From Pholidichthys leucotaenia (taxonomy: Eukaryota), in the NCBI GenBank assembly GCA_020510985.1, contig CM035838.1, positions 342,579,700-342,643,699 of the forward strand: a stretch of 64,000 nt of DNA, given 5' to 3'. The translations under genes were made by a program, and so were the position numbers. Under the pieces are notes generated by a model that saw nothing but the letters and a program-made list of their open reading frames with translations, did no database searches and was not told the origin of the DNA. Shown in pieces: positions 38,421-55,745 of the stretch. Position 1 is the first letter of the stretch; every line of letters starts with the position of its first letter.

Positions 38421-39380
38421 TTTCCCTTTGCCACTCTTTAGTATGGCCATTTCAACAGCCTAACTCTATAACAGAGGCTATTTACCTTGACCCCACATCG
38501 GGAACCAAAACCATTGATAGCATGATATAAAGATCAATCCAACTGATTTTATCAAGCTGACCAAACACAATTACTCACTATTTGATGGTACTTAAGCTTC
38601 TTGTATTGTGCCGGATTCCTTATAATGACATAATTCTCAAACTGTCCAAACACGATAGCTCACCATTTGATGGTACTTAGGTTCTCGTCTCGTATTATGC
38701 CAGATTATTCTTGTATTATGTCATAAATTCCTTAAATGCCCATTATTTCCATTCAATATTAGGATCAGTACTTCTTATTCTCTATAAAAGGCAGCTTACC
38801 AGTCTGACCCTGATAATGTATTAATGATTAAATAATTCACTCTTATCATCACAGAATGTAAATGATTAAAATATTCTCTGCATGTTCTTAATTCTTCAAA
38901 AAATGACATTAAATTTTCAGATTTCTGTTAAAAATTATAATGATCAAATTCTTAATTTCTGGTAAAATTATAATTATGACAAAAAGACTAACTTTGACTG
39001 AATACTACAGACAATTCTACAGAAATTTAGAATAGGCTTCCTGCTTACCTTGTGAGATCAGCAGCCCCGAATTGTCTATAGTAGACAGGAAAAAACTTTT
39101 TGTCCAGTCTCTTCCGATGTCTGCCAACTGGCCAATCACGTTGGCGGTCACCAGGTTGTAAAAAAACTTTTTTTTCTTCTGTCTGCAAAAATGTGTTCAA
39201 GAATTGGTCAGTCAACACGAAACTATTTTAAATGCATCAGAGATTAAAGAATCACATGAAAGATGCTATTTCTCACTTATCTGATTTATTATTCTTGAAT
39301 CATGCAGAGAATATCACAGCTGTGGTCCGTCTCAGCATGACTTGCCGACAGTACAGAAAAACAATAAATTCGAGTACATA

Positions 39381-41024
39381 CAGTTAGGCCCAGAAATATT
39401 TGGACAGTGACACAATCTTCATGATTTGGGCTCTGCACGCCACCACATTGGATTTGAAATGAAACAACTACAACGGAATTGAAGTGCAGACTTCAAGGTT
39501 TAATTCAACGGGTTGAACAAAAATAAATGATTAAACATGTAGGAATTGTAGCTATTTTTATACAAACGCTCCTCATTTCAGGGGCTCAAAAGTAATTGGA
39601 CAAATAAACATAACCCTAAGTAAAATGTTACTTTTCAATATTTTGTTGAGAATCCTTTGCAGGCAATGACTGCCTGAAGTCTGGAACCCATGGACATCAC
39701 CAAATGCTGGGTTTCCTCCTTTGTGATGCTTTGCCAGGCCTTTACTGCAGCTGTCTTCAATTGTTGCTTGTTTGTGGGTCTTTCTGCCTTAAGTTTTGTC
39801 TTGAGCAAGTGAAATGCATGCTCGATTGGGTTGAGATCTGGTGATTGACTCGGCCATTGCAGAATATTTCACTTCGTTGCTTTAAAAAACTCCTGGGTTG
39901 CTTTTGCAGTATGTTTTGGATCATTGGTGAAGCGCCATCCAATCAACTTTGCTGCATTTGGCTGAATCTGAGCAGAAAGTATATCCCTATACACTTCAGA
40001 ATTCATCCAGCTGCTTCTGTCTTTTGTCACATCATCAATAAACACAAGTGACCCAGTGCCATTGGAAGCCATGCATGCCCATGCCATCACACTGCCTCCA
40101 CCATGTTTTACAGAAGATGTAGTGCTTTGGATCATGAGCTGTTCCAATTCTTCTCCAAACTTTCTTCTTCCCATCATTCTGGTACAGGTTGATCTTAGTC
40201 TCATCTGTCCAAAGAATGCTGTTCCAGAACTGGGCTGGCTTCTTCAGGTGTTTTTTGGCAAAGTCAATTCTGGCCTTTCTATTTTTGAGGCTGATTCATG
40301 GTTTGCACCTTGTGGTGAATCCTTTGTATTTACTCTCATGAAGTCTTCTCTTTATGGTAGACTTAGATACTGATACATCTACTTCCTGGAGAGTGTTCTT
40401 CACTGGAGTGGATGTTGTGATGGGGTTGTTCTTCACCATGGAAAGGATTCTGTGATCATCCACCACTGTTGTCTTCCGTGGACATCCAGGCCTTTTTGAG
40501 TTCCCAAGCTCACCAGTGCACTCTTTTTTTCTCAGAATGTACCAAACTGTTGATTTGGCCACTCCTAACATTTCTGCTATCTCTCTGATGGATTTCTTCT
40601 TTTTTTTCAGCCTAGGGTGGTCTGTTTCACCTCCATTGAGAGCTCCTTTGACCGCATGTTGTGTGTTCACAGCAACAGCTTCCAAATGCAAACGCCACAC
40701 CTGGAATCAACTCCAGACCTTTTAACTGCTTAATTGATGACAGGTTAACGAGGGAAGAGCCCATGCAGCCTTGTTATTTTTTTTTCAGCCTTCTGAGTCA
40801 ATTGTTCAATTACTTTTGGTCCCTTGAAAAAGAGGTGGCTACGTATTAAAGAGCTGTAATTCCTAAACCCTTGCTCCAATTTGGATGTGAATACTCTCAA
40901 ATTACAGCTGAGACTCTGCACTTTAAGTTCATATTGATTATATAATTGTATCCTGAATATGTTTTCGTAAACAGCTAAAACAACAAAACTTGTGTCACTG
41001 TCCAAATATTTTTGGGCCTAACTG
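39381..41024 (-). mobile_element. Tc1/mariner-superfamily DNA transposon (1644 bp), decayed
   Basis: 33-bp TIRs CAGTTAGGCCCAGAAATATTTGGACAGTGACAC / GTGTCACTGTCCAAATATTTTTGGGCCTAACTG. TA TSDs at 39379-39380 and 41025-41026. Transposase fragments on the minus strand. Confidence 0.85.
39869..40700 (-). pseudogene. Tc1-family transposase (HTH/paired-like N-terminus + DDE domain), frameshifted
   Basis: ORFs 40296-40700 (GCPRKTT...HESKYKGFT) and 39869-40204 (HGGGSVMAWACM...NDPKHTAK). Confidence 0.8.
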
Positions 41025-41441
41025 TATATCTTCTAGTCTGGGGCATTCCCCAGACCCCAACAATGGCTCCCTTCTTCAGGATTGCTGACTCCATCAGACA
41101 TCTTCTCCAAACAATGGCTCTCTCCAAGGTTGGCTGGCCAGGTGCAGCCTGCTGATGCTTCGATCTCTTATCGCAACCCTGAACACAAGCGAACCTCCCC
41201 CCCGCTATGCGTAAACTAAAAGCAGCCCATTGTTTGCTAAGCGATAAGGGATGTGTGTGTGCATAACTAACCCACATCTTTTATGTTCAGCGTGAAGCAG
41301 TGCAGAGACTTCAAACAGCATAAGCACATTTGTGTAAACAATATTTAATATTCTAACTTATCTAAACATTTCTACCACAGTATTGTGTCCACCACACAGC
41401 ACCCCCCCCCCCGCCGCCCCCACAATCACCCAGAAAAGGCT

Positions 41442-54172: not shown

Positions 54173-54827
54173 ATAGTATCAGACCCAGGGAACACACACA
54201 CAGGCTCGAGTGAATACAACAATCTTTATTTGTTTCAAGTGAGTGTGTGAGTGCATGTATGTGTTGTATGTGCAGAGTATGAGGTGGTAACAGATAGTGA
54301 TGATGTCGTGACCGGGGAAGAGCAGAACGCCGTTCAGCCTGGCAATCCTATAATAAGACAAAGCACAGATGTTAGCACAGTCCACCAATAAAGGAGCATG
54401 GTAATGACTGGGGCTTACTTTGCAGATGGAAGTTGGATGCTCAGGTTGGCCCAGGGGTTGCAGCCAGGGAGACAGCGTTCTCGGCCCACACCGGGGACGG
54501 GCAGGTGGCCCTGCTGGAGCAATGGAGGCTCGTACTGCCGCCAAGAGGAGGAGATTCCACCGCCGGGGGAATCCACCTGTACACAGGGGAAGATGACTAA
54601 AAAGGTGAGTGGGAATCAGGCTTACTTGAAGCGAAGAGACGAATCGGGTCAGGGATGAAGAGGCCAGGAAGTTGGCTGTTGACGAGAGACGTAATTCTGC
54701 TGGCAGGACGACAGACGGCTCCATGCCAGATCTCAGGCAGAGCAGGTTATAAAGCCCGTGGGAGATTGGGAGCATGTGTGCGTGCAGCTGTAGCAGATAA
54801 TGGCCCAGAGGGAGCCATGACAAGCAC

Positions 54828-55745
54828 CACGTCCATCATTCTTTGGAAGGTTTGCGCAGCGGCCTTTAACCCAAACGGCATGCATAAAAACTCGAAAAGG
54901 CCAAAAGGAATTATTTCTGCTGTTTTGGGAACGTCCTCCACGCACACCAGACTTGGTGGTAATCGTGGTCCAGATCCACTTTCAAAAAAACACACGTCCC
55001 GGCCAGGTGCACGGTAAAATCCTGGATGTGCGGGATGGGATACTGATCGTGTTCCGTGGCATTGTTCAAGCGCCGGAAATCGCCGCACGGTCGCCACGAC
55101 CCATCGGCCTTAGGCACCATGTGTAGAGGGGATGCCTACGGGCTGTTGGAGCACCTAACGATGCCCAGCTGCTCTAAGTTGGTAAACTCCTCACGCGCAC
55201 TGGCTAGTTTAACCTCATCCAGGCGCCGAGGTCACGCAAACACCGGCGGGCCTTTTGTGGTTATGAAATGTTCAACCCCGTGTTTGGTTACCGTAGCAGA
55301 AAAAGTCAGAACCGTAAGTGCTGGGAACTGTGAAAGTAAATGCTGGTACTTACCCCCTGGAGCTATAACATTAGCCTGTGTTGTTGGCCCAACTCCCCGA
55401 GCTGTGCAGGGCAAGGAGGAAAAAGAGACAGCATTCACTAAACATCTGTTGGAAACATAAACTAACAACCCATAAGTGATAGAAACAAAGCATCCCATTC
55501 CTGCATCTCTTGGCATCCATCCCAGCCACCACCAATGGCTCCTCAACTTCGCTGGAGTCCTTCCCGGATGCCGGTGCATTTGTGTGCACACAGAGTTCTG
55601 GTCGCTAGGATGATGCAGTCCGCTTCCTGCGCCAGAGCGTGGTCACTCTCTGTTACCAGCAGCGGTGAGTTGGCCAGGATCACCCTAGCTGTAGCAGGTA
55701 GGTTCCTTGTTAAATGCATTTTATTGAAAACCTGATATTGTATAT
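54828..55745 (-). CDS. D/E 5' portion: RT N-terminus, protease/RT junction, gag C-terminus (fragments)
   Basis: [55 protein letters not shown], gag NLPATARVILANSPLLV. Confidence 0.65.

Follow-up and report, generated by a model that had tools for sequence, protein, structure and literature searches.

A three-layer nest of LTR retrotransposons with a solo LTR and a Tc1 transposon inserted at its side

How deep does the pile of transposable elements (TEs) at this locus go, and in which order was it built? A preliminary description of the window (the whole 64-kb stretch of DNA analysed here) had proposed a four-level nested stack. We found nesting at all of the sites in question; the depth, on the other hand, is three TE layers (D/E > F > G), with two side insertions, a solo LTR and a Tc1 transposon, into D/E. 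All four insertions (G, F, the solo LTR and Tc1) lie at the places originally noted, their boundaries are exact in the sequence, and the family assignments are upheld by domain content. The locus is a real but ordinary pile of mutually inserted TEs, very probably built by successive independent integrations. Its features, with their target-site duplications (TSDs), are as follows.

About 39157-55707, minus strand: D/E, non-chromodomain Ty3/gypsy family X, 5'-truncated
39157-39380, minus strand: distal part of the D/E 3' LTR; left TSD copy of Tc1, TA, at 39379-39380
39381-41024, minus strand: Tc1-like DNA transposon, 1644 bp; transposase with stops and frameshifts; TA on both sides
41027-41398, minus strand: proximal part of the D/E 3' LTR; its start corresponds by homology to where the 3' LTR of the related element H starts
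41399-42370, minus strand: D/E internal; polypurine tract, integrase C-terminal part and zinc-binding (H2C2) domain
42371-42741, plus strand: solo LTR of a chromovirus, 371 bp, TGTCAC...ATGTCA; TSD AACAG; inside D/E
42747-43742, minus strand: D/E internal; RT C-terminal part and RNase H; one TSD copy of F, AGCAC, at 43738-43742
43743-54822, minus strand: F, chromovirus inside the RT of D/E, recognized by its LTR pair and TSD
43743-44396, minus strand: F 3' LTR, 654 bp, recognized by LTR homology
44397-46961, minus strand: F internal 3' part; RT from motif 2 on, RNase H, integrase and chromodomain; several frameshifts; holds ATATA at 46957-46961
46962-52415, plus strand: G, structurally complete chromovirus, 5454 bp, inside the RT of F, recognized by its LTR pair, TSD and domains
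52421-54166, minus strand: F internal 5' part; self-primer-type PBS, gag, protease and RT N-terminus
54167-54822, minus strand: F 5' LTR, 656 bp; the second AGCAC copy adjoins at 54823-54827
54828-55707, minus strand: D/E internal 5' remnant; region upstream of RT and RT N-terminus; truncated here

G, F and the solo LTR each have TG...CA termini abutted by an identical short TSD, and the host becomes continuous when the element and one TSD copy are removed. As had been reported, these duplications are ATATA for G (46957-46961 and 52416-52420), AGCAC for F (43738-43742 and 54823-54827) and AACAG for the solo LTR (42366-42370 and 42742-42746). The joint chance of three exact 5-bp TSDs is about (1/1024)^3, and the boundaries are fixed independently by LTR homology. 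No target-site motif common to F, G and the solo LTR was found.

We then investigated the rejoined hosts. In silico excision followed by a BLASTX-type comparison gave continuous single-frame pol alignments across each junction, and the peptides that had been quoted for the rejoined flanks appear verbatim, both when F is excised from D/E (MMDVVLRDL) and when G is excised from F. Rejoined D/E matches the teleost pol proteins P0121, P0123 and P0124 in one 455-aa single-frame HSP (63-66%, positions 799-2124) with both junctions inside, and P0129 in an equivalent 451-aa HSP (59%, positions 811-2124). It is also colinear across both junctions with three uninterrupted paralogues in the window (24812-26796, 30787-28823 and 61365-63278); the DNA alignments show no gap at the F site and none at the solo-LTR site, where the host DNA is unbroken against all three. 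Rejoined F matches P0002 in a gapless 265-aa HSP (71%) spanning the G site, and its DNA alignment to the RT of G is likewise gapless there. The restoration of an ORF that had been claimed for the solo-LTR site is true in that the frame is open; it is nominal in that two small deletions, one of 14 bp lying 28 bp upstream and one of 1 bp lying 10 bp downstream, have shifted this frame from the ancestral one. Both lie off the junction itself. On re-inspection, no TSD was absent and pol was not broken at any pair of rejoined flanks.

A target must exist before anything can insert into it. D/E therefore predates both F and the parent of the solo LTR, and F in turn predates G; LTR divergence is concordant. 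The nesting in the preliminary description, D/E > F > G and D/E > solo LTR, is therefore borne out by continuous rejoined hosts, by TSDs and by LTR dating. LTR-LTR dating gives the same order as the nesting (G 0.022 < F 0.053; K2P 0.0215 and 0.0527, respectively). The D/E LTR differs from that of a paralogue by a K2P of 0.069, or about 0.035 per lineage, compared with 0.026 per lineage for F. Judged by this per-lineage LTR divergence, D/E would be older than F, which agrees with what the nesting requires. Eleven of the 12 differences between the G LTRs are CpG transitions, and the observed/expected CpG ratio is 0.73 in G, 0.62 in F and 0.64 in D/E; CpG transitions predominate in the decay, which is what repeats methylated in the germline would be expected to show. 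LTR dating is open to distortion by gene conversion (PMC7251063). The nesting order is independent of LTR dating.

The window contains at least nine LTR-retrotransposon copies, with a second nest at 22-32 kb. A highly repetitive region like this, where 64 kb hold several related copies of gypsy and chromovirus elements, is prone to misassembly and ectopic exchange, and the stack could on these grounds be taken for an assembly artefact or for the product of recombination between copies, with a chimeric F or a chimeric D/E. We find this barely credible: misjoins or recombination would destroy matching TSDs, whereas all three 5-bp TSDs match, the hosts rejoin without one gapped base at the junctions, and the LTR pairs have distinct, internally consistent divergences.

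The outermost element, D/E, contains RT, RNase H and two parts of the integrase, its zinc-binding domain and its C-terminus, and has no chromodomain. Its 5' LTR, PBS, gag, protease and own TSD are absent, and the integrase catalytic core has lost about 320 bp (103 aa) around 42160. Thus, D/E is a truncated, not a complete, member of the Ty3/gypsy non-chromovirus family X. An integrase deletion common to D/E and its neighbour H, as in a non-autonomous subfamily, was considered and rejected: H keeps about 100 bp at the 3' breakpoint that D/E lacks, so the two deletions are independent. The extent previously given for D/E (39133-55745) has to be corrected at both ends, with the LTR ending at 39157 and the homology to H and paralogues stopping at about 55707 (residue 12 of P0124 maps to 55348). 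The LTR (39157-41398; 596 bp net, without Tc1) starts with TGTGTGGTGG on the minus strand at 41398, right after a G-rich polypurine tract, and ends on that strand with ...TTTTTTACA. The paralogous LTR at 5642-6189 is homologous to it from 39156/39157 on, and outside this boundary the flanks of the two are different.

A fourth, outer TE layer around D/E is unsupported: the left flank (37253-39156, 1.9 kb) has no Pfam-detectable TE ORFs and, low in GC and poor in CpG, it looks like background. With one LTR only and no TSD of its own, D/E is probably a single integration event on the strength of colinearity, not of termini. As D/E lacks its 5' end and TSD, its ordinary integration is not directly demonstrable, and the stack might have been built elsewhere and have arrived as a unit by segmental duplication or by retrotransposition of a nested composite, in which case the chronology would be that of another locus. 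This seems very unlikely to us. Within the window, every stack junction is present once only. One TSD flanks F and another flanks G, so both inserted into a DNA target, and the order D/E > F > G holds wherever it happened.

In contrast to the other inserts, the timing of Tc1 is less straightforward. The transposon is present in the 3' LTR of D/E as described, flanked by TA on both sides. It has terminal inverted repeats of 33-38 bp starting with CAGTTAGGCCC (also given as CAGTTAGGCCCAGAAATATTTGGACAGTGACAC) and longer imperfect inverted repeats of about 245 bp. Its frameshifted transposase contains HTH_Tnp_Tc3_2 (1.3e-19) and DDE_3 (3e-12) in Pfam searches. It thereby combines what marks a Tc1/mariner element: duplication of TA at the target, terminal inverted repeats, and a transposase of the DDE type that has a paired-like HTH. 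With its TA duplication, CAGT... termini, size of about 1.6 kb, terminal repeats of about 245 bp, HTH and DDE_3 domains and a TACAGTA footprint at the paralogous site, this Tc1 resembles the IR/DR-type Tc1/mariner elements of fish (Sleeping Beauty-like); unlike them, it is a dead copy with stops and frameshifts.

The footprint lies in the paralogous LTR (5642-6189), which reads GAGTACA-TACAGTA-TATCTTC where the D/E LTR reads GAGTACA-TA[Tc1]TA-TATCTTC; the Tc1-free ('virgin') form of the family-X LTR at this TA was taken as ACATATATC. TACAGTA is the canonical excision footprint of Sleeping Beauty/Tc1-type elements (PMC6943129). The converse reading, that TACAGTA is the ancestral target of Tc1, was rejected, as neither of its TAs gives the observed junctions without an extra 5-bp deletion. 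Because the footprint occupies exactly the TA that holds Tc1 in D/E, Tc1 may predate the integration of D/E, and placing it after D/E is not safe. It is a real, if doubtful, possibility that an ancestral family-X element already had Tc1 in its LTR and that retrotransposition copied the two together, the sister LTR later losing Tc1 by transposase excision. The LTR of D/E has 34 TA sites, and thus two independent insertions at one TA, one of them then excised, would be less parsimonious. The homology between D/E and the sister copy stops exactly at the LTR terminus (39156/5642), which argues against segmental duplication. On the other hand, there are only two LTR copies to compare, and the 5' LTR of D/E, which would be expected to carry Tc1 too, is missing. 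Tc1/SB elements favour AT-rich palindromic targets, and the site CATATATC is of this kind, so recurrent use is possible. In addition, no multi-copy LTR+Tc1 composite was found: metagenome contigs had zero matches to the LTR-Tc1 junction and zero to the terminal repeat of Tc1. In our estimate it is somewhat unlikely that a Tc1 resident in the family-X LTR was multiplied by reverse transcription within the LTR and yet stayed a substrate of its transposase, with D/E keeping the copy and the LTR at 5642-6189 a clean scar. If true, a DNA transposon would have spread by hitch-hiking on a retrotransposon.

We then investigated the two full-length chromoviruses. G has LTRs of 570 bp each (46962-47531 and 51846-52415), 97.9% identical with TG...CA ends, and a polypurine tract GAGGGGGGAGTAC. 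On a single strand lie gag (47484-48521) and, between the LTRs and in chromovirus order (PR-RT-RNaseH-IN), pol (48434-51421, PR-RT-RH-IN), followed by a chromodomain ORF (51445-51915). Pfam hits are gag-asp_proteas (5e-8), RVT_1 (6.5e-38), RT_RNaseH (1.4e-30), Integrase_H2C2 (8e-17), rve (4e-10) and, downstream of the integrase, Chromo (4.4e-9). The chromodomain matches the CBX2/CBX7 chromodomains in PDB (7e-9) and has aromatic residues at the three positions aligned with the cage residues of the CBX2 chromodomain. G is therefore complete in structure, as had been stated; it is not intact, gag being interrupted by one in-frame stop and the chromodomain preceded by one frameshift. The LTRs of F (654/656 bp) are 95% identical, with a polypurine tract GGGGGGGGGGGGGGAGTAC next to the 3' LTR (minus strand, from 44397). 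F maps colinearly to the same pol proteins as G, in chromovirus domain order, and carries the same 13-residue chromodomain motif. The solo LTR is 72-76% identical to the G LTRs (E=1e-53).

F and G resemble the vertebrate Tf1/sushi chromoviruses (V-clade; Sushi-ichi of Takifugu) in having gag, PR, RT, RNase H, integrase and a C-terminal chromodomain, 5-bp TSDs, TG...CA LTRs and a gag with the DUF4939/Retrotrans_gag signature. As in that group, they have no tRNA-type PBS, and a segment of the LTR complements 10 nt beginning 2 nt past the 5' LTR. In G, LTR positions 97-106 (CTGAAGCCGT) are the exact complement of ACGGCTTCAG, 2 nt past the 5' LTR, a match reached by only 2 of 2000 shuffles. In F, ACGGAGCCGT at the homologous LTR position forms the pairing with ATGGCTCCGT; one CpG>TpG change is present, and there are compensatory differences compared to G. 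This pairing fits self-priming from a putative PBS in both elements, as described for the Tf1/sushi group (PMC6317226). The one phylogenetic argument for the probable Tf1/sushi placement is that the nearest relatives are teleost chromodomain-bearing pol proteins. F and G differ from described elements in a protein identity of 57-64% at most to database pol; the best pol matches of G and of family X are teleost chromovirus and gypsy pol, with 62-65% identity. Look-ups of the exact products of three ORFs, G pol, F gag and ORF2 of H, returned no record. The LTRs of F and G are only about 57% identical to each other, and the two are thus distinct, undescribed families. From three insertions only, we infer that the repeated entry of chromoviruses into TEs may be due to chromodomains that guide integration to methylated, silenced chromatin. 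For this group, the direction of integration into heterochromatin by the chromodomain is given as established (Gao et al. 2008, as cited in PMC3605345).

The locus is very probably a transposon 'graveyard' in a teleost-like vertebrate genome. In this reading, family-X D/E, a non-chromodomain Ty3/gypsy element that is now 5'-truncated and without its integrase core, integrated on the minus strand. The Tf1/sushi-type chromovirus F then entered its RT coding region with a 5-bp staggered-cut duplication (AGCAC), and G, a related but distinct chromovirus, the RT of F (ATATA). In a separate event, a third chromovirus entered D/E just upstream of the integrase zinc-finger region (AACAG) and later collapsed to the solo LTR through LTR-LTR recombination. 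Tc1, a member of the Tc1 family, sits at a TA of the D/E 3' LTR.

Maize intergenic regions reportedly hold the classic nested LTR-retrotransposon clusters, those of SanMiguel et al. in 1996. Like plant clusters, this locus has LTR elements within one another, each with its own TSD, inner elements that are younger by LTR divergence, solo LTRs and the possibility of relative dating. Unlike them, it has a teleost-type vertebrate host, a modest depth of three layers and a Tc1 in the pile. Nesting of LTR retrotransposons is common (PMC6911290) and has been surveyed plant-wide (PMC6911290 and PMC7251063). Nested stacks are textbook material, and neither TE piles of this sort nor their reconstruction from TSDs nor LTR dating goes beyond the standard. 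One point alone is mildly unusual: a paralogous LTR bears a Tc1 excision footprint at the corresponding TA, which hints at co-amplification of Tc1 within the LTR. Beyond annotation the locus matters little, its use being that of a tidy local record of insertion order. Two undescribed sushi-type chromovirus families and one Tc1 family gain full-length reference copies from it, and the clean and self-consistent order of insertion that it records, D/E > F > G, could serve to calibrate the activity of TEs in this genome.

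We found that four insertions lie within a Ty3/gypsy element of family X on the minus strand (D/E). In a comparison of the window with itself, the interval contains two nested pairs of direct repeats, which are the LTRs of two chromoviruses, F and G. The features are as follows.

39381-41024, Tc1 (1644 bp) in the 3' LTR of D/E, inverted repeats CAGTTAGGCCC..., TA on both sides
42371-42741, chromovirus solo LTR, ends TGTCAC...ATGTCA, target-site duplication (TSD) AACAG on both sides
43743-54822, minus strand, chromovirus F in the reverse transcriptase (RT) of D/E, ends TGTCA...TGTCA, TSD AGCAC (43738-43742 and 54823-54827)
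43743-44396 and 54167-54822, LTR pair of F (654/656 bp, about 95% identical)
46962-52415, plus strand, chromovirus G in the RT of F, ends TGTCAC...ATGTCA, TSD ATATA (46957-46961 and 52416-52420)
46962-47531 and 51846-52415, LTR pair of G (570 bp, 97.9% identical)

Direct reading of the ends bears out all four bounded insertions and their TSDs. The boundaries were set independently through LTR homology, and thus chance is a most unlikely source of the three exact 5-bp TSDs, whose joint probability is about (1/1024)^3. The 371-bp solo LTR is 72-76% identical to the G LTR.

We then examined the hosts after excision in silico, in which each insert was taken out together with one TSD copy. Rejoined F and rejoined D/E both give the peptides quoted in the preliminary description, and these are core RT motifs. 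In DNA alignments, rejoined D/E runs colinear across both junctions with three uninterrupted paralogues in the window (24812-26796, 30787-28823 and 61365-63278), and the local alignment has zero gaps at the F site and at the solo-LTR site. At the G site, the alignment of rejoined F with the RT of G itself is likewise gapless. Continuous pol alignments across the rejoined flanks are seen with independent database proteins as well as with the paralogues. Positions 799-2124 of rejoined D/E match the teleost pol proteins P0121, P0123 and P0124 in one 455-aa single-frame HSP (63-66% identity), and positions 811-2124 match P0129 in an equivalent 451-aa HSP (59%); both junctions (918/919 and 1914/1915) fall inside these HSPs. 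A gapless 265-aa HSP between positions 2124-2918 of rejoined F and P0002 (71%) spans the junction at 2402/2403. At the solo-LTR site the reading frame is open, yet off the ancestral frame for about 12 codons, because 14 bp are deleted 28 bp upstream and 1 bp is deleted 10 bp downstream; both deletions lie away from the junction.

The outermost element, D/E, carries RVT_1, RNase H and Integrase_H2C2 domains and no chromodomain in Pfam searches. It is related to gypsy pol proteins without a chromodomain from cichlids, gobies, stickleback and others (56-65% identity), and family X adds a new member to the Ty3/gypsy elements that lack this domain. On the minus strand, the 3' LTR begins at 41398 (TGTGTGGTGG), directly after a G-rich polypurine tract; the 3' LTR of a neighbouring relative, H, begins at the homologous position. 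The D/E LTR ends at 39157 (...TTTTTTACA), where homology to a second family-X LTR copy (5642-6189, without its first 50 bp) ceases, and measures 596 bp without the Tc1. On the far side, homology to H and the paralogues ceases at about 55707, beyond which no protease, gag, primer-binding site (PBS) or 5' LTR of D/E is found. The integrase catalytic core has also lost about 320 bp (103 aa) that its relatives keep. D/E is thus a 5'-truncated, internally deleted copy, and its own TSD and LTR-LTR age are therefore unobtainable. While the nesting itself stands, the 'four-level' depth first proposed does not: the 1.9 kb left of D/E contain no TE domains, so that the stack has three TE layers (D/E > F > G) and two side insertions. 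H (56094-59336, plus strand) is an LTR-bounded, internally deleted family-X relative that faces the truncated 5' end of D/E head-to-head; the deletions in H and in the D/E integrase core are independent events. Its LTRs (about 393 and 326 bp) are about 90% identical, its TSD is the 4-bp GGAG, its PBS is TGGTGACCC, and its gag has DUF7041.

G (5454 bp) encodes gag (Retrotrans_gag, DUF4939), protease, RVT_1 (6.5e-38), RNase H, Integrase_H2C2, rve and a C-terminal Chromo domain (4e-9) according to Pfam. It is structurally complete but not intact: gag is interrupted by one in-frame stop, and one frameshift precedes the chromodomain. F, 5621 bp once G is excised, has the same architecture with several frameshifts. 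In both, a polypurine tract G(n)AGTAC lies immediately 5' of the 3' LTR and a tRNA-type PBS is absent. Instead, the 10 nt starting 2 nt past the 5' LTR find their complement at LTR positions of about 97-108. This complementarity is exact in G (CTGAAGCCGT / ACGGCTTCAG; 47058-47067 with 47534-47543) and was reached by only 2 of 2000 shuffles. In F, the segments at the corresponding position of the LTRs (about 54715-54724 and 44289-44298) pair with 54155-54164; relative to G the two sides show compensatory differences, and there is one CpG>TpG change. Among fungal and vertebrate chromoviruses, the Tf1/sushi group is described as self-priming (PMC6317226), and the complementarity in F and G fits that signature. 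G pol is closest to teleost pol proteins that bear a chromodomain, at only 57-64% identity; F and G each add a new member to the vertebrate Tf1/sushi chromoviruses. Taken together, the identities of the elements mark the host as a teleost-like vertebrate. A further chromovirus fragment (6813-9323, plus strand; RNase H, integrase and chromodomain, 57-58% identical to P0025) adjoins the second family-X LTR copy, and therefore these families probably form a further composite in the 5-10 kb region.

From nesting alone, the order is D/E > F > G and D/E > the parent of the solo LTR. LTR divergence agrees with D/E > F > G. The K2P distance between LTRs is 0.0215 for G and 0.0527 for F; that between the D/E LTR and its paralogue is 0.069. 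Per lineage, D/E (about 0.035) exceeds F (0.026), as the nesting demands. The G LTRs differ by 12 transitions, and 11 of these fall in CpG context, a bias that indicates methylation of the repeats in the germline. CpG o/e is lower in F (0.62) and D/E (0.64) than in G (0.73). LTR retrotransposons are commonly nested (PMC6911290), and the combined use of nesting and LTR divergence has come under critical examination (PMC7251063). Nested stacks of this kind, TSD-based reconstruction and LTR dating are standard in the field. The preliminary description was correct overall and carefully observed, and the stack itself is ordinary.

The observed structures match those expected from integration, LTR-LTR recombination and Tc1 cut-and-paste. 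G, F and the parent of the solo LTR would have entered by ordinary integrase-mediated integration with 5-bp staggered cuts, the solo LTR would have arisen by recombination between the LTRs of one element, and the Tc1 would have been pasted at TA. The chromodomains of this group target heterochromatin for integration (Gao et al. 2008, cited in PMC3605345). The G chromodomain aligns with those of CBX2/CBX7 (7e-9), with aromatic residues at the three aligned cage positions. We infer from three insertions that chromodomain-directed integration into heterochromatin may explain the repeated arrival of chromoviruses inside other TEs. The window is rich in TEs: it contains at least nine copies of LTR elements and also a second nest, much younger, at 22348-32422. 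The outer element of that nest (minus strand, gypsy X/Y type; LTRs 22348-22761 and 32009-32422, 99.8% identical; TSD AAATT) encloses a full-length relative (plus strand; LTRs 23364-23762 and 27842-28240, 99.5% identical; TSD GAGG). The inner element may have been recently active, since its pol frame is open for more than 800 aa and its CpG o/e is about 0.93. Another repeat family (18940-20835 and 34680-37252; three or four copies, 92-98% identity) includes an inverted 1-kb pair (34691-35710 / 37252-36237) and directly abuts a gypsy copy ending at 34676.

The Tc1 is an ordinary dead copy with a frameshifted transposase (HTH_Tnp_Tc3_2, 1e-19; DDE_3, 3e-12). At the same place, the D/E LTR reads GAGTACA-TA[Tc1]TA-TATCTTC and the paralogous LTR (site about 5851-5857) reads GAGTACA-TACAGTA-TATCTTC. 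Sleeping Beauty/Tc1-type elements canonically leave the footprint TACAGTA on excision (PMC6943129). We rejected either TA of this heptamer as the Tc1 target, as neither yields the observed junctions; this indicates that the paralogous LTR formerly carried a Tc1 at the same TA and later lost it. The shared site has two possible readings. Tc1 elements may have struck this TA, one of 34 in the LTR, on two occasions. Alternatively, though less likely than not, a Tc1 already sat in the LTR of an ancestral family-X element and was multiplied with it by retrotransposition. The LTR-Tc1 junction and the Tc1 terminal repeat had zero matches in the metagenome contigs scanned. The order D/E > F > G is unaffected by the timing of the Tc1, because the Tc1 had been left out of the proposed chronology. 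A Tc1 hitch-hiking inside an LTR would be the sole reading of this locus with some novelty.
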